A stretch of 64,000 bases of DNA, from the NCBI GenBank assembly GCA_944320495.1, contig CALUHR010000009.1:64001-128000 (forward strand), given 5' to 3'. The translations under genes and the position numbers were made by a program. The notes beneath the pieces are model-generated. The model ran no database searches, was not told the DNA's origin, and was given only the letters and a program-made list of their open reading frames with translations. Source of the stretch: Candidatus Methanomethylophilaceae archaeon (GTDB lineage: Archaea > Thermoplasmatota > Thermoplasmata > Methanomassiliicoccales > Methanomethylophilaceae). Shown piece after piece: positions 12,874 through 64,000 of this stretch (its first letter is position 1; the number at the start of each line of letters is the position of its first letter).

Positions 12874-13254
12874 ATGGCTTTCGGATCCGGCGCTCCATCG
12901 GAGGAGTACAAGCTCGTCGTCCTCGTAAGGACGGATCTCGACATGGGCAAGGGCAAGATCGCGGCCCAGGTCGGTCACGCCTCGGTCGAATGCGCCCTGA
13001 GGGCCGAGAAGAAGGACAAGCGCGCCTTCGACATCTGGATGAACGGCGGTCAGAAGAAGGTCGTCCTCAAGGTCGCCAACAAGGACGAGATGGTCCGCTA
13101 CATGTCCGAGGCCAAGAGCCGCGGGCTCTACGCGTGCATGATCACCGATGCCGGCCGCACCGAGGTCGAGCCCGGGACCAACACCTGCGTCGGCATTGGT
13201 CCCGCCCCCGGCTCCGAGATAGACCGCGTGACCGGCGGCCTCAAGATGCTCCGA
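12874..13254 (+). CDS. pth2: Peptidyl-tRNA hydrolase Pth2
   Basis: KLVVLVRTDLDMGKGKIAAQVGHA, QKKVVLK, DAGRTEV, GIGPA..IDRVTGGLKML then CGA (13252-13254); standard-code stop only at 13356. Confidence 0.95.
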
Positions 13255-14590: not shown

Positions 14591-16279
14591 TCGGACCGAC
14601 TCGATCCTGCATGCGAAGATCGCATCCTCCGGGTGATGCCCTTCGGACGTGTCCCCGATCTCGAAGGAATCCCCGCTGGTCTCGCAGAGGACGAACCTGT
14701 ACCCCAGTATCTCGATGCCGTATCCGGGGGCGTCCAGATCCACGGCGGGCATCGCATGGTCGTCGAAGAGCAGGAACGCCGTCCGATAGCCGGAGAGGCC
14801 CATGATCGTGCCGAACAGGAACGTGGTGTCCTCGCAGTCCCCGCCACCGTCCCACAGGGTCTCCACCGGGAACTTCCAGTACTCATGGGATCCGCGCGTG
14901 TCGATGTCCTCCAGGTACGGCACCGACTGGACGAACTCGAGGACGAACTCCGCGTACTGCAGCCTGTCCAGCCCGGAGCCGAGCTCCATCAGCTTCTCGG
15001 CCATCCTGACGATGACGGGGTCGTCCGGCGTGTAGAACGTCTCCATGTGGGACTGGTAATGCTGTGCGAACCTGGGAAGGGTCGGATCATCATACTCATG
15101 GGCGTACGCCTGGCTGAGGAACACCGTGTCGGAGTACCGGTACCTGATGCCGTCGTACACCCAGGTGAATGAGAACGTCCTCTCGTCCTCGATGAGGAAC
15201 TCGAGGGTGGTGGTGACGCCGTCGATGGCCTTGGTCGCCGTGTACAGCCCCGGGGACTCAGGGCGTGCGACTGCTCCTCCCGAGGCATCGGTGATCTCCG
15301 CGTCTCCGAACCCCATGTCGATGACGTCCTGGAAGCCACTGACGACGACGTATCCGCTCGATGCGCAGGCGCGATAGACGTCGGACGGGGACGGCATGAG
15401 CACCGTGAGCGTGCGGTCGGTGGTGGCGAGGTGGCCGTTCACGTACCATCCCTCGAAACCGTCCCCGTAGGCGTACAGGAACAGCGGCTTGTTGGCATCC
15501 GCCTCCATGACCTCCACCGTCAGCGGATGGTCCGCGTAAACGTTCGGGGCGAACGATGTGTCCGGGTCGTAGCCGAAGACCTCTGTGGTCTCGTAGACGA
15601 CCGTCCCCTCGGTACCCATCCGGGATTCGATCATCATCGGAATCAGGAGGTCCTTGACCCACATGGTGTCGCCGCCCCTGGTCCAGACAGTGACCCTCTC
15701 CTCTCCCATGAACTGGTTGCCGGCGTACGTCCATCCGTCGGTGATGCTCCGGCACCAGCCGGAATGCGACGACCCGTCGGTCCATCCCCCGTCCGGCCAG
15801 GAGTAGAAGACGTTCCTGTCCTGGCTCACCAGCGCCATGCCGTCCCTGACGGTGTCGTAGCCCCAGGTGACGGTCCCCTCGACGGTGTGCGGGATGTCCC
15901 CGTTCCTGTACTCGCCGAAGACGTCCATGGTCCATCCGGTGCCCACGCGCGTGTCCTCCACCCATTTGGCGTAGAGGATGATGTGACCGCGGAGATCGGG
16001 GCTTATCGCCATGATGGGGTTGGTGAGAGCGGCCTCGGTGCACCATCCGGCGAACCAGTACCCTTCCCTCTCGGGGATGGGCAGGGTCGCGGAGGATCCC
16101 GCCACGTAGTATCCCGGGGCGTCCGTCGGAAGGGTTCCCCCGTCCGTGCGGTAGCTGATGTAGAACCTCTCGCCGTCCCGGACCTCCGTGTCGTCCAGCA
16201 CGGTGGTCGCGACGACCGCGGATGCGAGCGTGGCGAACGCCAGGGCAATGGCGACGGCGGCCAGCACGGACTTCCTCAT
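14591..16279 (-). CDS. Exported protein: signal/TM, InlB B-repeat-like segment, C-terminal transglutaminase-like domain
   Basis: MRKSVLAAVAIALAFATL; LPIPEREGYWFAGWCT..ILYAKW; YWKFPVETLWDGGGDCEDTT and DHAMP..ETS. In-frame CGA 14593-14591; the standard code would run to 14186 across the thiM promoter and 5' end. Confidence 0.82.
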
Positions 16280-16355: not shown

Positions 16356-16763
16356 ATGGCGATGATCGACATCGAGTACAGGCACCCCGAGGCGGATCCG
16401 GACGACCCCACCATAAGGCGTCGCACGAACGCCGTCATGTCCCAGTACATCAGGGACCTCATCTTCGAGATGCAGATGGCGGACATCTCGTGCGCGTTCA
16501 AGGAGACCGTGACGGAGGACGGCACCAGGGACGTCAGGATAAACGGCAGGACGATCCCGGAGATCATCGAGGGGCTCCAGATCAAGATGCTCGAGGAGGA
16601 GGACTCCTGCGACCTCGGGAGCACCAGGATGGTCAAGTTCGGCAGGCCCACCCTGGACTGGAAGAGGGAGTGGGTCGAGGACGTGCCCGACACCATCATG
16701 AAGAACGCGATCGCCAAGGTGTTCGCGGACGAGAACAGGAACAGGATCGACGTCATCAACTGA
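16356..16763 (+). CDS. Hypothetical protein (possibly DUF2703-like)
   Basis: Clean 135-aa ORF; VRINGRTIPEI and EDVPDTIMKNAI resemble DUF2703 only weakly. Confidence 0.6.
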   Translation: MAMIDIEYRHPEADPDDPTIRRRTNAVMSQYIRDLIFEMQMADISCAFKETVTEDGTRDVRINGRTIPEIIEGLQIKMLEEEDSCDLGSTRMVKFGRPTLDWKREWVEDVPDTIMKNAIAKVFADENRNRIDVIN

Positions 16764-29895: not shown

Positions 29896-30669
29896 ATGAT
29901 ATTCGTCTTCTCCGGCACGGGGAACTCGTACGCGGCCGCCAAGCGCATCTCCGAAGCCATCGGCTCCGGCATGATCGACATCGCCGCGGCGGTGAGGTAC
30001 AAGCGCTACACCTACGACGCCAAGGGAGAGCCCGTCGGGTTCGTGTTCCCCACCTACTACTACGGGCTCCCGCGCATGGTCCTCGAGTTCGCCAGGAACG
30101 TCACAGTCCTGAACCCCGGCAGGGTGTTCGCCGTGACCACCTGCGGGGAGGAGTCCGGAGGGGCCTGCGAGATGCTCGCCGAGGAGCTCGGCAGTCGTCT
30201 GAGGGTCGATGCATCCTACGACGTGGTCATGCCCGACAACTCCGTCTTCGCCTTCGACCCCCCGACAAAGGAGCAGGCGGAGGAGACGCTGAGGGCCGCC
30301 GACGCCGAGATCGACCGCATCATAGGGTCCATCAAGGCGGGTGAGTCGGGAGACATGTGCGCCCACAAGGGTGACAAGGACTGGAGGGAGATCTATGCGC
30401 TCTACGACGAGCAGCGCGTGACGGAGCCCTTCAGGATCACCGACGCCTGCATCGAGTGCAGGATCTGCGAGGACATCTGCCCGGAGCAGATCATCAAGGT
30501 CTACCACAGGAAGCCGGTCTGGGACGAGGAGAAGTGCTCCCTCTGCATGGCCTGCATCCAGATGTGCCCCAAGGGGGCGATAGAGTACGGCGATGCCACG
30601 GTGAACCGCGGCAGGTACTACAACCCAATCTTCTACGAGAGGACCATCGGGATACCGCTGAAGTACCGA
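29896..30669 (+). CDS. EFR1-family ferrodoxin (flavodoxin + 2x[4Fe-4S])
   Basis: VFSGTGNS, GFVFPTY, MPDN, CIECRICEDICP, CSLCMACIQMCP; CGA 30667-30669 after ..IPLKY; standard-code stop 30717. Confidence 0.9.
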
Positions 30670-47623: not shown

Positions 47624-49450
47624 TCGGTCCCCCTCCTCGAACTGCGCGTCATGGAGGGTCCGGTAGTATCCGCCGAGCTCCAGCAGCTCCTCGTGCGTGC
47701 CGGATTCGACGATCTCCCCTCCCACCATCACCAGTATCCTGTCGGCGTTGCGGACGGTCGACAGTCTGTGAGCGATCACGAACGACGTCCTTCCGCCGGT
47801 CATCAGGTCCATCGCCTGCTGGATGCGCTTCTCGGTGCGGGTGTCCACGGAGCTCGTCGCCTCGTCCAGTATGACCATGGGGGCGTCCTTGACTATGGCA
47901 CGGGCGATGGCGATCTGCTGCCTCTGCCCCACGGACAGGCCTCCCCCGGACCCTATCACGGTCTGATACCCGTCGGGGAGCGAGCGGATGTACTCATCGA
48001 TCCCGACGGTCCTGCAAGCCTCCTCCACCCTCTCGGGCGTGGCCCCGGGGCTGGTGAACGCCACGTTGTCGTAGACTGTCCCGTCGAACACCCACGAGTC
48101 CTGGAGGACCATGGAGAACTGCTCCCTCACCTGGTCCCTCGACAGCGATGACGTGGGCACACCGTCTATGAGGATCTGCCCGGACCACGGGTCGTGGAAC
48201 CTCATCAGCAGGTTGACCAGGGTGGTCTTCCCCGCTCCCGTGGGACCGACGATGGCGATGGTCGATCCCGGCTCCACGGTCAGGTCCAGTCCGTGGATGA
48301 CCTCCACGTCCGGACGGTATCCGAAATGGACATCCCTGAATTCGACCCTGCCCTCGGCCCTGGAGAATCCCGGGAGCCTCGGGTCGTCCTCCATCTCCGG
48401 GAGGGCGAGGAACTCGAACACGCGTTCCGATGCGGACGCCACGGACTGCATCCTGGCGATGACGTCCGCCAGCTCCGCGATCGGCTGGTTGAACTTCTTT
48501 ATGTAGACGATGAAGGCCGCTATCACACCGTAGGTGGCCGACCCCTCGATGATGAGGACGGATCCTGCGACGCATACCATAACGTAGCCCAGGTTGCTGA
48601 TGAAGTGCATCAGCTGGGGCATCATGGAGGTGATGACCCTCGCCCTGAACGACGAGCGGAACAGCTCCTCGTTGACCCCGTCGAACTCCGCGCGGCTGTT
48701 GTCCCAGTTGTCGTACGTCCTGACTATGTCATGGCCGTAGTAGACCTCCTCCACTATGGCGTTGATCCTCCCGAGGTCCCTCTGCTGGGCCACGAAGAAC
48801 CTCTGGGTGCGGTGCGTGACCACCCAGAGCGCAGCCATGCCGAACAGCGTGGGGATCACCGCCACCAGCGCGAGTTGCCAGCTGGTGAGGAGCATCATCA
48901 CGATGGCACCGATCATGGTGAAGACGGCGTTGATCGTGTTGGAGAAGCTCTCGGCCGAGCCGCTGCGGACCGTGTCCGTGTCATTGGTCATGCGGCTCAT
49001 CAGGTCGCCGACCTGGTGCGACTCCAGATAGGAGAACGGCAGGCGGTAGAACTTGGACGACAGGTCCTTGCGCATCCGGTCTCCGACCCTCTCGGAGGCG
49101 GTGCCGATGATCCTCGACGCCGACGAGTCGAACAGGAAGCTCAGGCCGTAGATGGCCACCAGGATGATGCCCAGCGTCCCGACCCATCCCGTGTCCACGC
49201 GGCCGTGGTCCGGGTCCAGAATGGATGCGGAGATCTCGTCGGTCATCATCTCCAGGAACTGTGGGCCAACCAGCGCCAGGAGCGTCCCGGCCAGCGTGCA
49301 CGCCATGCCTAGCAGGACCGCGCGACGCTCCCTGCCCATGTACGCGAACAGGTTCGCCATCGCCTGTCCCAGGTCCTTGGGCTTGTCGGAACCGCGGGTC
49401 CATCTCGGGCCCTTGGGCTGCGTCCTTGCTCCGGGCTCGGTGCTCGACAT
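47624..49450 (-). CDS. ABC exporter, TMD+NBD subunit 2
   Basis: GPTGAGKT, LSVGQRQQ, ILDEATSS, IAHRLS; CGA 47626-47624 after QFEEGD; standard-code stop 47507. Confidence 0.92.
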
Positions 49451-58592: not shown

Positions 58593-59309
58593 ATGGCTGG
58601 AAAGCTTTACGGAATCGGCGTCGGACCCGGGGATCCCGGTCTCCTGACGCTCAGGGCCAAGGAGATCCTTGACGGATGCGGGATCATCGCGTATCCCGTT
58701 CGCAAACTCGGGGAGGGTAGCACGGCCTTCGACATCATCAAACAGGTCGTGGACGTCTCCGAGAAGAGCGTCGAGGAGTTCCTCTTCGACATGAACCCCG
58801 ACGATTCCGTCCGCGAGAGATGCCGCGAGGAGGCCATGGAGAAGATGTGCATGCTCCTGGACAACGGGGAGGACATAGCCATGGTCACCCTCGGGGACGC
58901 GGGCGTGTACAGCACCTACATGTACATCGACGCCGAGATCAGGTCCCGCGGATACGAGACCGAGGTCATCCCAGGGATCCCGTCCTTCTGTCACGGTGCC
59001 GCCCTGGCCGGCGTTCCGCTCATGATAGGGAACGAGGGCCTCGCCGTCGTGCCCGTCGCCAAGGAGAACACCGCTCTTCTGAGGGACGCCCTCCGGAACT
59101 TCGACAACGTCGTGGTCATGAAGGCGTTCAAGTCCATGCCCCTCATAGCCGAGACCATGGACGAGTTCGGCATCCCCCGCGAGGGTGCCACCGTTGTGAG
59201 CAACGTCGGGATGGAGGGCGAGTACATCGGCCCCATGGACGACGACCGCAAGTACGGCTACTTCACGACGGTCATCATCAAGAAGAACAAGGGAGGCAGA
59301 GAGATATGA
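58593..59309 (+). CDS. cbiL: Precorrin-2 C20-methyltransferase
   Basis: LYGIGVGPGDPGLLT, TLGDAGVYSTY, IPGIPSF. Confidence 0.92.
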   Translation: MAGKLYGIGVGPGDPGLLTLRAKEILDGCGIIAYPVRKLGEGSTAFDIIKQVVDVSEKSVEEFLFDMNPDDSVRERCREEAMEKMCMLLDNGEDIAMVTLGDAGVYSTYMYIDAEIRSRGYETEVIPGIPSFCHGAALAGVPLMIGNEGLAVVPVAKENTALLRDALRNFDNVVVMKAFKSMPLIAETMDEFGIPREGATVVSNVGMEGEYIGPMDDDRKYGYFTTVIIKKNKGGREI

Positions 59310-60061
59310 TCTCGTTCATCGGAGCCGGACCCGGGGACCCGGAGCTCATCACAATAAAGGGAAAGAGGCTTATCGAGCAGGCAGACGTAATCATCTACGC
59401 CGGATCGCTGGTCAACCCGGACGTTCTGGAGGGCCACAAGGCCGGCGCGGAGATCTACAACAGCGCCCTGATGGACCTCGACGAGGTCATCGCCGTCATG
59501 GAGAAGGCCGAGAGGGAGGGCAGGAAGGTCGTGCGCGTGCACACCGGGGACCCCGCCATCTACGGCGCCCACAGGGAGCAGATGGACAGGCTCGACGAGC
59601 TCGGGATAACCTACGAGGTCATCCCCGGCGTGTCCTCCGCCTTCGCCACCGCGGCCGCCCTAAACGCGGAGTACACGCTCCCCGGGAGGAGCCAGACCGT
59701 CATATTCACCAGGATGGAGGGGAGGACCCCCATGCCGGAGCGCGAGAAGCTCCCGGACCTGGCGAGACACCACGCCACCATGGTCATCTTCCTGTCCATC
59801 GGATTCATGGACGAGATGGCCAGACAGCTCCAGGAAGGCGGATACGAGCCCACCACGCCCGTCGCCGTGGTCTACAAGGCGTCCTGGCCGGACCAGAGGA
59901 TCGTCCGCGGGACCCTGCAGGACATCGCCCAGAAGGTCAAGGATGCGGGCATCACGAAGACCGCCCTGACGGTCGTCGGCGAGTTCCTCTGCGAGGACCA
60001 CGAGCTCTCCAAGCTCTACGACAAGCACTTCACAACCGAGTTCCGCAAGGCGAAGGAGTGA
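59306..60061 (+). CDS. cbiF: Precorrin-4 C11-methyltransferase
   Basis: IGAGPGDPELIT, RVHTGDPAIYGA, SQTVIFTR, YKASWPDQ, SKLYD. Confidence 0.95.
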   Translation: MISFIGAGPGDPELITIKGKRLIEQADVIIYAGSLVNPDVLEGHKAGAEIYNSALMDLDEVIAVMEKAEREGRKVVRVHTGDPAIYGAHREQMDRLDELGITYEVIPGVSSAFATAAALNAEYTLPGRSQTVIFTRMEGRTPMPEREKLPDLARHHATMVIFLSIGFMDEMARQLQEGGYEPTTPVAVVYKASWPDQRIVRGTLQDIAQKVKDAGITKTALTVVGEFLCEDHELSKLYDKHFTTEFRKAKE

Positions 60062-60066
60062 TCCGG

Positions 60067-60816
60067 ATGGCGAAGGGAAGGCTACACGTGGTCGGGTTCG
60101 GACCCGGCGGGAAGGACGACATGACGTTCCGCGCCGCGCGTGTCATAGAGAACGCCGACGTGGTCACCGGATACACGACGTACATCAATCTCCTGAGGCC
60201 GATCTTCCCGGACAAGGTCTACAAGGCCACCGGGATGATGAAGGAGGTCGAGCGCTGCAGGATGGCCATAGAGGACGCCGTGTCCGGGAAGGACGTGGCG
60301 ATGGTATCATCCGGAGACTCCGGCATCTACGGCATGGCGGGGATCATCTATCAGCTGGCGGACGAGATGGGCGCCGACATCGAGATCGACACCGTCCCCG
60401 GCATCACCGCCGCATCGTCTGCCGCATCCATCCTGGGCGCACCGCTGATGCACGATCTGGTCATCGTCAGCCTGTCGGACCTGATGACGCCCCTGGACCT
60501 GATCATGGACAGGGTCGGGAAGGCGGCCGAGGGCGACTTCATCACATGCATCTACAATCCCAAGAGCAAGACCAGGACCGAGTACCTGGGCATGGCGAGG
60601 GACATCCTTCTGAAGCACCGCTCGCCGGAGACCCCGGTCGGCATCGTCAGGAACGCCGGCAGGGAGGACCAATCGAGCAAGGTCACCACCCTGGGCGGTC
60701 TCGACCCCGCGGACGTGGACATGTTCTGCATCGTGATCGTCGGGAACTCGCAGACGTACGTGTCCAACGGCCGCATGATCACACCCAGGGGCTACAGGAT
60801 CCAGGGAGGCGAGCGA
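60067..60816 (+). CDS. cbiH: Precorrin-3B C17-methyltransferase
   Basis: VVGFGPG, VSSGDSGIYGMAG, PGITAA, APLMHD, SLSDL, YNPKS, ITPRGY; CGA 60814-60816; standard-code stop 60999. Confidence 0.95.
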
Positions 60817-60817
60817 T

Positions 60818-61459
60818 TTGACCATCGAGATAGTGAGACCCGAGGACATCGAGAAGCGCAGCATGGAGATCATAACATCGGAGCTCAACGGCCGCACCTG
60901 GCCGGAGCCCCAGTTCTCCATCGTGAAGAGGTGCATCCACACCTCCGCCGACTTCGACTACGCGGACAACCTGGTGTTCTCCGACGGGGCGGCGGATAAG
61001 GGCGTCGCCGCCATCCGCGCCGGTGCGGACATCGTCACGGACACCAAGATGGCCGCCGCGGGCATCAACAAGAGGAAACTCGGGGCCTACGGGGGGAGCG
61101 TCCACTGCTACATCAGCGACGAGGACGTCATGGCTGAGGCCAAGGGCCGCGGATGCACCCGCGCGACCATCTGCATGGAGCGCGGCGCGGACGTCGGCAT
61201 GGAGAGGCCCGTCATCTTCGCGATAGGCAACGCGCCTACCGCGCTGGTGAGGCTCTGCGAGCTGGTGGAGGAGGGCAGGGTGAAACCTGCTCTCGTCATC
61301 GGTGCGCCCGTCGGATTCGTCAACGTCGTCGAGTCCAAGGAGATGACCATGGAGACCATGGAGAGGCACGGCATCCCGTACATCGTCCCCAAGGGCAGGA
61401 AGGGCGGCTCCAACATCGCGGCCACCATATGCAACTCGATGATCTACTTCAAGGGTTGA
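60818..61459 (+). CDS. cbiC: Precorrin-8X methylmutase
   Basis: IEKRSM, RCIHTSADF, AIGNAPTAL, IGAPVGFVNV, GRKGGSNIAA; TTG start with GGAGG upstream. Confidence 0.95.
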   Translation: MTIEIVRPEDIEKRSMEIITSELNGRTWPEPQFSIVKRCIHTSADFDYADNLVFSDGAADKGVAAIRAGADIVTDTKMAAAGINKRKLGAYGGSVHCYISDEDVMAEAKGRGCTRATICMERGADVGMERPVIFAIGNAPTALVRLCELVEEGRVKPALVIGAPVGFVNVVESKEMTMETMERHGIPYIVPKGRKGGSNIAATICNSMIYFKG

Positions 61460-61512: not shown

Positions 61513-62529
61513 TCAGGGCGCATCCGATGGCCGGGACTCCGTCCCGTCGGCATAGCGTATGAACCTCCCGGTTCCCAGAGGCTGGGCCTTGTCGATGATG
61601 TCCCAGGGCCATTCGAGGAACTCGTTCCTGCGGATCTCGTCGAGCGCCCTGCGGACGTCCTTCAGGTCCCCCAGGTAGACCGGGCCGTACGAAGCCATCT
61701 TCTGGCCGATCGGCCTCCCCTCAAGGAGCCAGAACACGGATTCGGTGTCCCCGTTCTCTATGGTGAATCCGCCGAGGTCCGAGAACTTCATCCTCGTGTA
61801 GAAGTCGACTTCGGTGTCGCAGACCTTCGCCTTGTCCCCCGACACGAAGTAGAGGTTCCTTCTCGCCCCGTCGGCGGCGGGGTCCACATCCATGCGGGCC
61901 CCGGGATCCATCCTGATGCGGAGGATCCTCACTCCGTTGGCGATCCGGGCGTATGATGTGGAGCTGGGGGATTCCGCCTCCCTGCCTCCGAACCTCCCGC
62001 AGACGACCTTGACGTCCCATCCGTCCTCCGAGATGACGGGGACGTCCCCGCTCCATACGGTGCTGACCGAATTGGGACTGTTCTTCATCTCCAGCGGCAG
62101 GTTCACCATGATCTGGGTGATGTCATTGGGGTTTCTGTCCTCCTGATTGACCAGAGGGTACATCTCGCAGTGCTCGTACTTCGACGACGCGGAAACCCAT
62201 TGCACGTCCCCGAAGCCGAATCTCCCTTGGATCCCCTCGGTGTCGAAGTGGTCCACGTAGCCCTTCTCTGCGAGGGTGACGGTCTCGTAGCCCCAGTGGG
62301 CGTGCATCGGGAACCCGGGCACGACCTTCCCGTGGTACATCCTGAACCCGAGGCGCTGAGTGTAGTCCCTGCCGAGGTTCCTTCCCGAGATCTCGTTCAG
62401 AGGGGGAGCCTGCTGGCGGTTCCCATGAGGGTAGTCGTCCTCGTGATGGGATGCGAAGATGAAAGGGTCCTCGGTGTCCCAGTGCATCCCGAGCCCCGAT
62501 GTCTTGAACGGCTTCCTCCCGGAGAACAT
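61513..62529 (-). CDS. Pirin-family cupin
   Basis: DPFIFASHH, GFPMHAHWGYETVT, HCEMYP. Confidence 0.88.
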   Translation of the reverse strand: MFSGRKPFKTSGLGMHWDTEDPFIFASHHEDDYPHGNRQQAPPLNEISGRNLGRDYTQRLGFRMYHGKVVPGFPMHAHWGYETVTLAEKGYVDHFDTEGIQGRFGFGDVQWVSASSKYEHCEMYPLVNQEDRNPNDITQIMVNLPLEMKNSPNSVSTVWSGDVPVISEDGWDVKVVCGRFGGREAESPSSTSYARIANGVRILRIRMDPGARMDVDPAADGARRNLYFVSGDKAKVCDTEVDFYTRMKFSDLGGFTIENGDTESVFWLLEGRPIGQKMASYGPVYLGDLKDVRRALDEIRRNEFLEWPWDIIDKAQPLGTGRFIRYADGTESRPSDAP

Positions 62530-62609
62530 GGAATCGCCATGCGCGTCGACGATTTAAACCGACCTGCGGGCGTCCCCGATATATACGTAGGGTGCCATGA
62601 GGAACGTCC

Positions 62610-63317
62610 ATGGACGGCACCCGTCTCAACAAGTACATCAGCGAGGCCGGCGTGGCCTCCCGCCGTGCGGCGGACAGGATGATAGAGGAGGGGAGGGTGA
62701 CCATCAACGGGCGCGTGGCCGTCGTCGGGGACAGGGTCTCCGAAGGGGACGTTGTTCGCGTGGACGGCAGAGAGGTCTCCGCCAAGGGCGGCGATGTCAT
62801 CATCGCGCTGAACAAGCCCCGTGGGATAACGTGCACGTCCAGCCCCGACGATCCGGACAACGTCATCGACTTCATCGGGTATCCAGAGAGGATATACTCG
62901 ATCGGACGTTTGGACAAGGATTCGGAGGGACTCCTCCTTCTGACCAACAACGGAGAGCTCGCCAACGCGATAATGAGGTCCCGCGGCGAGCACGAGAAGG
63001 AGTATCTGGTCACGGTGGACCACGACATCACGGACGCCTTCATCAAGAGGATGTCGTCCGGGGTCGAGATCCTCGGAAGGGTGACCAAGAGGTGCGAGGT
63101 CGAGAGGGTCTCAGACAGGGAGTTCCGCATCGTCCTGAGGCAGGGTCTCAACAGACAGATCCGCAGGATGTGCGGCACCCTGGGATACACTGTCCTGACG
63201 CTCAGGCGCGTCCGCATCATGAACGTCCGGCTGGGAGACCTGCCAGTCGGCAAGTACAGGGACCTGACGGATGAGGAGAGGGATGAGCTATGCAGGCAGG
63301 CGCTGGGTTCGAAGTGA
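62610..63317 (+). CDS. rRNA pseudouridine synthase (RsuA/RluF family) with S4 domain
   Basis: RLNKYISEAGVASRR, LNKPRG, IGRLDKDSEGLLLLTN, GLNRQIRRM. Confidence 0.92.
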   Translation: MDGTRLNKYISEAGVASRRAADRMIEEGRVTINGRVAVVGDRVSEGDVVRVDGREVSAKGGDVIIALNKPRGITCTSSPDDPDNVIDFIGYPERIYSIGRLDKDSEGLLLLTNNGELANAIMRSRGEHEKEYLVTVDHDITDAFIKRMSSGVEILGRVTKRCEVERVSDREFRIVLRQGLNRQIRRMCGTLGYTVLTLRRVRIMNVRLGDLPVGKYRDLTDEERDELCRQALGSK

Positions 63318-63874
63318 GGGAGATAACGATCGAGGACATACCGTTCCTCACGCCGATAGGCAAGGGTCAGCTCGGGGTGGACTACATCTCCGACGAGGAC
63401 TTCGAGAAGGCCATCTCCGATCCGGGGCAGTTCTGTCTCATCCCCGTCGTGGACGGCGTCCCCTCTGGATTCGCCATATGCAAGGAGTTCGGCCCCGAGT
63501 CCGAGCCCGAGGCGCTGGCGCTCCCAGATTCTGGATACAGGGACTGGGTCAGGTCCAGGAGCAGGATCGGCCTGGTGGACTCCGTCGCCCTGTCCCCGTC
63601 GGTCGGCGGAAGGGGGATCGGCAAGGCCCTCTGCGAGGCCTGTCTGGAGAGGTTCTCCGAGGACGGGTGCGATTCCGCGGTGTCGATGGCGTGGGTCCAT
63701 GAGGACGGCGTCGAGCCCATCAGGAAGGCGCTCACGCAGTCCGGTTTCGAGAGGACCGACCTCGTCATACGCGGCTACTGGAACTCCTGGGTCGACACCG
63801 AGGGGGGACACATGTGCCCCTACTGCGGCTCGCCGTGCAGGTGCTCCGGAGCCCTGTGGCGGAGATCGCTCTGA
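63314..63874 (+). CDS. GNAT-family N-acetyltransferase with C-terminal Cys cluster
   Basis: VALSPSVGGRGIGKAL (acetyl-CoA motif A); CPYCGSPCRC; GTGA overlap with the upstream gene. Confidence 0.82.
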   Translation: MREITIEDIPFLTPIGKGQLGVDYISDEDFEKAISDPGQFCLIPVVDGVPSGFAICKEFGPESEPEALALPDSGYRDWVRSRSRIGLVDSVALSPSVGGRGIGKALCEACLERFSEDGCDSAVSMAWVHEDGVEPIRKALTQSGFERTDLVIRGYWNSWVDTEGGHMCPYCGSPCRCSGALWRRSL

Positions 63875-64000
63875 CACCCTGGCCGACAGCCATGCGCCGA
63901 TGTCGGCATAGACCTCGTCGCGGTTGGTCTCGTTCATCAGCTCGTGCCTCGCACCATCGTAGAGCTTCATCTCGGGGTGCAGGCCCGCCTTCTCCAGGAG
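63866..64000 (-). CDS. Alpha/beta hydrolase (lysophospholipase-like), C-terminal part; 5' end outside window
   Basis: KLYDGARHELMNETNRDEVYADIGAWL; CGA 63868-63866. The standard code would add about 580 residues, to 62123. Confidence 0.85.

Follow-up and report, generated by a model that had tools for sequence, protein, structure and literature searches.

To our knowledge, every established change of a sense codon into a stop codon is organellar. AGA and AGG serve as stops in vertebrate mitochondria (NCBI table 2), UCA in Scenedesmus (table 22), and UUA in Thraustochytrium (table 23). These organellar codes belong to tiny genomes, which contain a dozen or so genes and are served by bacterial-type release factors, and their common course is that a sense codon, often one for arginine, becomes scarce, disappears from within genes, and turns up again at their ends. 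Further green-algal cases of sense codons that have become stops have been reported (PMC6821328). In the literature, we found a sense-to-stop code change described for no free-living organism, and no description of CGA as a stop in the Methanomassiliicoccales or in the genus studied here. The Codetta screen of 250,000 genomes cannot infer stop codons, and a search of its main text by term returned no mention of Methanomassiliicoccales.

Termination at CGA itself has been described in yeast, in which eRF1/eRF3 decode this codon as a stop in competition with tRNA-Arg (Wada and Ito, 2018; PMC7379694). In this organism, one CGA at the end of a gene suffices for detectable termination, and UGA-biased variants at L123, the x residue of the YxCxxxF motif, including L123R, enhance CGA termination (PMC7379694). 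Among archaea, two hydrothermal-vent assemblies were found to be without CGA and to read CGG as Trp, and the possibility that CGA is a stop was raised (Melnykov, 2026 preprint, 10.64898/2026.04.02.715157). These vent archaea are unrelated to the genus considered here and have about 50% GC; tRNA-UCG was not found in them, CGG is reassigned, and the stop function of CGA was untested there (10.64898/2026.04.02.715157). A codon with two meanings is also on record for methylamine-using methanogens, in which UAG is ambiguous between stop and pyrrolysine (PMC12626013).

The locus from which the present analysis started is the 3' end of an alpha/beta hydrolase gene, located at 63866-64000 on the minus strand of the window, i.e., the whole stretch of 64,000 nucleotides that was analysed (G000:C9:64001-128000). 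The genome, G000, comprises 1.77 Mb in 14 contigs, with 61.5% GC and 90.6% completeness. The hydrolase gene runs off the window end and starts 786 bases past it; in full it occupies G000:C9:127866-128786, consisting of 306 codons plus CGA (127869-128786 without the CGA). Its predicted product matches Pfam Hydrolase_4 (PF12146) with an E-value of 8e-48 and a score of 163 bits (curated cut-off 27), covering positions 2-239 of the 239-position profile with residues 26-288 of 306, and on this basis it qualifies as a putative full-length member of the family, similar to lysophospholipases and monoglyceride lipases. A GHSMG sequence, corresponding to the GxSxG nucleophile elbow, is present, and GSKDPV and GARHEL stand at the places expected for the Asp and His residues, as assigned by eye without a structure check. 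Neither the 306-residue product nor any of four long read-through versions had an exact match in a public protein collection. Nothing about the hydrolase as such is unusual; the way it ends exemplifies a candidate new genetic code.

The original prediction held that the C-terminus of the hydrolase is followed directly by CGA, and the minus-strand frame does read ...HELMNETNRDEVYADIGAWLSARVSE (C-terminus ...AWLSARVSE) and then CGA at 63866-63868, with T as the next base (CGA-T). A second in-frame CGA lies 12 codons past the first (63830-63832, minus strand) and is a possible back-up stop upon read-through. If CGA were not a stop, the frame would continue as an open tail of 580 codons (62123-63865, minus strand) through a GC-rich region to a TGA at 62123-62125. 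The accompanying claim that this next standard stop lies beyond a GNAT and a pseudouridine synthase gene and within a pirin gene was borne out, and all three neighbors were confirmed by Pfam. The GNAT acetyltransferase gene (63290-63874, plus strand; PF00583, E 8e-9) is convergent with the hydrolase and ends in TGA at 63872-63874, the pseudouridine synthase gene (62610-63317, plus strand; S4 and PseudoU_synth_2 domains) likewise ends in TGA, and the pirin-like gene (61513-62529, minus strand; PF02678 and PF05726) is read in a frame that differs from that of the tail. With CGA as the stop, the convergent overlap with the GNAT gene amounts to the 9 nt that had been predicted, the CGA included.

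Alignment with homologues, which had been proposed as a check, indicated that the hydrolase ends where its relatives end. All 25 same-genus orthologues stop within a few residues of the same place, 18 of them with TGA, one with TAA, and six with CGA, so that TGA or TAA occupies the homologous position in 19/25; a more distant orthologue from another family (G024) ends at this place with TAA. The six CGA-ended orthologues come from independent assemblies (G000, G018, G108, G104, G009, and G010) with 56-96% protein identity. Within a near-identical trio, G108 and G104 end in ...WLSDRISQ-CGA-TCT, and the close relative G107 ends in ...WLSDRISQ-TGA-TTT. On a maximum likelihood tree of the hydrolase proteins, the CGA/TGA label needs five changes, at least two of which are forced by well-supported branches, and CGA and TGA have therefore been swapped repeatedly at this gene end. 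CGA occupies the position of a standard stop in these orthologues, a statement that applies to the end of this gene only. Hydrolase orthologues of 68-69% identity were also present on contigs L172-L174, in public bins titled Bacteroides ovatus, Lachnospiraceae bacterium, and Ruminococcus sp.; these titles look wrong.

The body of the hydrolase and its putative tail differ sharply. The body (306 codons) contains no CGA and has a codon log-odds of +0.58, whereas the tail (580-581 codons) contains 15-16 in-frame CGA and has a codon log-odds of -0.50; the contrast in CGA content is far beyond chance. A comparison of the 580-residue tail with Pfam revealed no family match. Between G000 and the 96%-identical G018, 33 of the 39 substitutions in the first 576 nt past the CGA fall at position 1 of the tail frame, which is position 3 of the GNAT frame, and amino acid identity is 82% in the tail frame vs 96% in both the GNAT frame and the hydrolase proper. 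The tail is thus without protein-level constraint and evolves as the antisense of the GNAT gene, from which we conclude that it is not protein.

Genome-wide, the behavior of CGA in G000 was determined in true reading frames, which were found by clustering stop-to-stop ORFs by codon usage. In-frame CGA numbered 12 per ORF decile in mid-gene vs 300 in the last tenth, and coding potential was +0.60 before the first late CGA and -0.81 past it (218/989 ORFs); no change occurred across other rare codons. A before/after test was applied to in-frame codons preceded by 40 codons of coding sequence. Coding sequence was found on both sides of CGA in three cases and only before it in 339 (339/342, 99%), and the same before-only measure was 97% for TGA, 94% for TAA, 91% for TAG, and 33-67% for other rare sense codons. 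When CGA was allowed as a stop, the gene ends of this genome consisted of 1081 TGA, 360 CGA (~23%), 68 TAG, and 51 TAA. The CGA ends also have a distinctive context, with T as the next base in 59%, vs 29% of TGA ends and 23% of all CGA triplets, and with the next in-frame stop at a median distance of 6 codons, vs 15 past TGA ends. Off-frame CGA is abundant (34 per 1000 triplets), and CGG is still used inside genes. Gene bodies, those of conserved genes included, have been purged of CGA, and at gene ends it takes the place of the TGA or TAA of relatives; downstream of it, neither the coding signal nor protein-level constraint continues. This pattern is specific to the reading frame, and a frame-specific signal must arise at translation.

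The three internal CGA codons of G000 are located at codon 78 of the aRF1 gene, at the junction of a GmhA-GmhB fusion, and at a site with an ATG four codons later, which is probably a gene junction. As a separate matter, TAG-ended ORFs in this genome keep their codon periodicity downstream, and 16 in-frame TAG codons have coding sequence on both sides. Pyrrolysine read-through of TAG is expected in this order of archaea and probably explains these codons; tRNA-Pyl was absent from the ARAGORN listing of G000.

Eight CGA gene ends were found in the window. One terminates a TP_methylase gene, which we take to be CbiH, at 60814-60816 (plus strand); this gene starts at 60058, and the TP_methylase profile is complete within 60058-60813. 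The CbiC gene follows on the same strand from a TTG start at 60818, one base past this CGA, with a profile that is complete from 60818; a second CGA, in frame with the first, lies at 60826. Such a layout, in which CGA and TTG are separated by a single base, is typical of coupled termination and re-initiation. Elsewhere in the window, the coding score changes from +0.79 before to -1.77 after the CGA at 13252-13254 (plus strand), and the CGA at 30667-30669 (plus strand) is followed by a second one five codons later (30682). Additional CGA ends are located on the minus strand at 49437-49439, 47624-47626, 16421-16423, and 14591-14593. Under table 11, several ORFs of the cobalamin pathway (including 58820-60061 and 60058-60999, plus strand) appear fused or overlong, and the TP_methylase ORF from 60058 runs 180 nt into CbiC; the overrun is gone with CGA as a stop. 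The Pelota gene (G000:C1, locus L014) ends in ...ILRYRL-CGA, and under table 11 it forms an open frame of 858 codons with the next gene, which is in the same frame and by eye resembles isopropylmalate or homocitrate synthase.

The distribution of this trait was explored in related genomes, all of which are metagenome bins or assemblies without transcript, ribosome, or protein data. In 10 other genomes of the genus that were sampled, internal CGA was absent or almost absent (0-1 per sample). The CGA share of sampled gene ends was 11/21 in G018, 6/58 in G004, and 0/28 in G061, and across the genus, in which some small samples showed no CGA end at all and the highest share was about 50%, it tends to rise with GC content. 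Because a codon model based on G000 does not suit low-GC outgroups, self-trained models were used in its place. With a self-trained model, 400 kb of the complete genome G008 (54% GC) contained one internal vs 18 terminal CGA (95%, as for TGA), and a standard stop stood directly after four of the 18. CGA remains a sense codon in the other genera of the family, though a rare one, present at 0-1 per 1000 codons in most and about 4 in one. The possibility that it is a stop in the sister genus (G044, 420 kb) was considered and rejected. A strict window test had placed 7/9 CGA at gene ends there, but an ORF-based count found 67 CGA in gene bodies, and end enrichment was only 2.8-fold, near the 2.1-fold of AGA; in the sister genus CGA is a rare sense codon.

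A cognate tRNA, whose absence might be demanded of a stop codon, is retained in this genus. The gene for tRNA-Arg(UCG) is present in G000 (G000:C13:413317-413390) and in 41 of the genus genomes examined (loci L124-L153 and L204-L218); it was not found in four incomplete genus bins (G010, G105, G096, and G099). U33 is nearly universal in tRNA. In 34 genus genomes, the anticodon stem of tRNA-Arg(UCG) contains a mismatch at 31-39 (C.A, A.A, or U.C), the loop CUUCGGA is otherwise normal, and compensatory changes preserve the remaining four pairs of the stem. Seven other genus genomes have a paired stem and the loop CCUCGAC, with C33, A37, and C38. The anticodon arm is normal in 12 genomes of other genera. 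Both lesions are inferred to weaken decoding. Nevertheless, the covariation of stem pairs suggests that this tRNA is maintained, and CGA is accordingly not simply without a decoder.

The GmhA-GmhB fusion gene (G000:C13:193621-194700, minus strand; locus L176) has CGA at the junction of its two domains, and the DxD motif is not preceded by a start codon. The junction codon is CGA in 10 genus members, AGA in two, AAG in one, and TAG in one (G017), and it is AAA in three fused genes of the Methanomassiliicoccus family; in four genomes, the gene is split, a TAA and a frame change having replaced the junction codon. In two genus members, G011 and G091, CGA also occurs at the conserved Arg of the GmhB DRD motif, indicating that CGA can still mean arginine.

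Bacterial RF2 (prfB) is autoregulated by an in-frame UGA codon, and a comparable arrangement would require an in-frame CGA to be conserved within the gene of the archaeal release factor. G000 has one aRF1 gene and one Pelota gene. The aRF1 gene (G000:C2:85936-87165, minus strand; locus L015:682-1911) consists of 410 codons with a single in-frame CGA at codon 78, a conserved Arg codon followed by C, and this CGA is the only one of the gene in 10/10 genus members examined, as the comparison with prfB would require. Similar to prfB, the codon is encountered early (codon 78 of 410), and the abundance of the factor could limit its own synthesis. Unlike prfB, for which a +1 frameshift is needed, arginine read-through by tRNA-Arg(UCG) would suffice in aRF1, although conservation is the sole basis for inferring such a loop. 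Outside the genus but within the family, all 25 aRF1 genes compared (L023-L047) use CGA for one or more conserved Arg residues (positions 11, 25, 27, 78, and others), for a total of 39, or about 3.8 per 1000 codons, a count inflated by kinship; the release-factor gene may have contained CGA before the code changed.

The aRF1 comparison revealed no genus-specific change in the NIKS, YxCxxxF, and GTx motifs, and the only genus-specific changes in the protein are A17D, S/Y142C, Q217L, F250V, A/T270I, A299C, and I/L373R. The YxC motif is YRC here, throughout the family, and also in Aeropyrum; it is YHC in Halobacterium and YLC in human eRF1. Since the recognition motifs are unchanged and the Arg of YxC is family-wide, nothing in the protein indicates that aRF1 gained CGA recognition, and this Arg, which is shared with Aeropyrum aRF1, is at most a predisposition. 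The yeast system involves the same codon and the same release-factor family, and aRF1 of this genus has Arg at the x position of YxCxxxF that was varied in yeast. In light of CGA decoding by yeast eRF1 and of the YRC motif, no new aRF1 specificity may be needed, only a weaker competitor. In yeast, CGA termination is a weak side reaction at a slow codon, while the genome described here has been rebuilt around it.

Together, the orthologue ends, the unconstrained tail frame, and the genome- and genus-wide behavior of CGA support the central claim of the original prediction, that CGA ends the hydrolase. We consider it highly probable that CGA is a fourth stop in this genus of Methanomethylophilaceae-type methanogens, interchangeable with TGA, and that the hydrolase terminates at this codon; the biochemistry, including the agency of aRF1, the efficiency of termination, and the level of read-through, is inferred. 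According to the proposed mechanism, the single aRF1 would terminate at CGA as it does at UGA, recognition of CGA by the factor being an inference, and it would prevail because the competing tRNA-Arg(UCG) is retained with a weakened anticodon arm. A competitor that is weakened but retained implies that the CGA stop would be leaky. The preference for T as the next base, the short distance to the next in-frame stop, and the internal CGA codons likewise suggest leakiness. Slight arginine read-through would then permit the synthesis of full-length aRF1, establishing a negative feedback loop, and of the GmhA-GmhB fusion, while at ordinary gene ends a T as the next base and nearby back-up stops might limit read-through; in the hydrolase, the next CGA would cap the extension at 13 residues. 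A stronger proposition is that CGA is a true dual-meaning codon, with aRF1 termination as the default and with tRNA-Arg(UCG) deliberately weakened for programmed read-through in a few genes, serving aRF1 self-regulation and the production of both a short and a fused GmhA-GmhB enzyme. We lean toward this proposition, though by no wide distance from even chances.

Explanations that do not invoke a change of code were weighed against these findings. A single T-to-C change turns TGA into CGA, such that the hydrolase might have lost its stop, leaving a pseudogene or yielding a real product of 887 residues, or the C might be a sequencing or assembly error for T in an assembly of 14 contigs that is 90.6% complete. 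Neither version accounts for the occurrence of CGA at this codon in six independent assemblies with 56-96% protein identity, or for the same pattern in some 340-360 other G000 genes, and a lost stop is further contradicted by a tail that evolves as GNAT antisense and has no family match. The orthologue ends, the genome-wide before/after counts, and the tail substitution pattern led us to reject stop loss and sequencing error, which are refuted for practical purposes. The one C/U difference between CGA and UGA also allows for C-to-U editing of the mRNA at CGA ends, whereby the ribosome would see UGA. Plant organelles are known to create stops by editing CGA to UGA, and the T that tends to follow CGA offers a sequence context for it. 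However, editing is blind to frame, yet only three in-frame CGA are left in genes in which off-frame CGA is common, and editing confined to specific sites would not select against CGA elsewhere in genes. Furthermore, at 10 off-frame CGA within aRF1, four of which have T next, the genomic residue matches that of other genera in 9/10 cases and the C-to-U-edited residue in 0/10. Editing was rejected on the basis of these residues, which match the unedited state, and we judge it very unlikely.

A third explanation, that CGA is unassigned or nearly undecodable, would also end the protein at the observed place, as the ribosome would stall and be rescued by a Pelota/ABCE1-type pathway or by unspecific action of aRF1. 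The anticodon arm of tRNA-Arg(UCG) is aberrant in every genus member examined, the recognition motifs of aRF1 are unchanged, and CGA was very scarce in the family even before the change took place, all of which are compatible with stalling. What is difficult to reconcile with it is that ~23% of genes depend on CGA, including operon-internal genes with a start codon 1-2 nt downstream, such as TP_methylase/CbiC, an arrangement that better fits efficient termination and re-initiation. The strong preference for T at +1 resembles the effects of stop-codon context on release factors, and the conserved in-frame CGA of aRF1 can be understood as feedback only on the premise that aRF1 acts on this codon. 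Stalling and rescue are therefore regarded as improbable, although they deserve more weight than editing, stop loss, or error.

Termination at CGA by aRF1, the reading that we prefer, can be placed relative to the described systems. The CGA code works like the sense-to-stop codes of organelles, insofar as an arginine codon turned rare, left gene bodies, and reappeared at gene ends, but it is not a member of this group, as it is found in a 1.77-Mb archaeal genome with aRF1 and Pelota. In contrast to the organellar examples, this 1.8-Mb free-living archaeon has ~360 CGA-ended genes, uses a release factor of the aRF1/eRF1 type, and retains the gene of the cognate tRNA. It shares with the vent archaea the possibility of CGA as an archaeal stop; here, unlike there, CGG is in use inside genes, and the stop role is backed by orthologue ends and coding-signal tests. 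The dual use of UAG for stop and pyrrolysine similarly involves a two-meaning codon that is tolerated genome-wide, in the same archaeal order, but UAG is a stop partly read as an amino acid, whereas CGA is an amino-acid codon mostly read as a stop.

If the dual-meaning reading is true, this would be the first sense-to-stop reassignment outside organelles, complete with regulatory wiring and with intermediate stages, which would be represented by the two tRNA lesions and by the differing CGA end shares, which reach about 50% in the genus but are as low as zero in some small samples. The ~360 genes that end in a former Arg codon would demonstrate that a sense-to-stop change can pass through a large genome, and the genus would offer a natural system for testing whether the route leads via codon disappearance, a crippled tRNA, or latent release-factor activity. 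At a practical level, translation with table 11 results in long false tails, e.g., 580 residues over two antisense genes in the case of the hydrolase, or in mis-split genes. Standard-table annotations and protein catalogues of the genus thus probably misrepresent as many as a quarter of the genes in a genome such as G000; the share of such errors is likely much lower in other genus members. The organism is an uncultured methanogen of gut type, and its lineage consists of gut methanogens, which are of interest for methane and trimethylamine metabolism. Just past the window end, by the hydrolase (L001:2907-5682), genes were recognized by eye for a NifH-like CfbC, a CbiX-type chelatase, and a Mur-ligase-like CfbE; by this identification, they are coenzyme F430 synthesis genes and would mark the organism as a methanogen.
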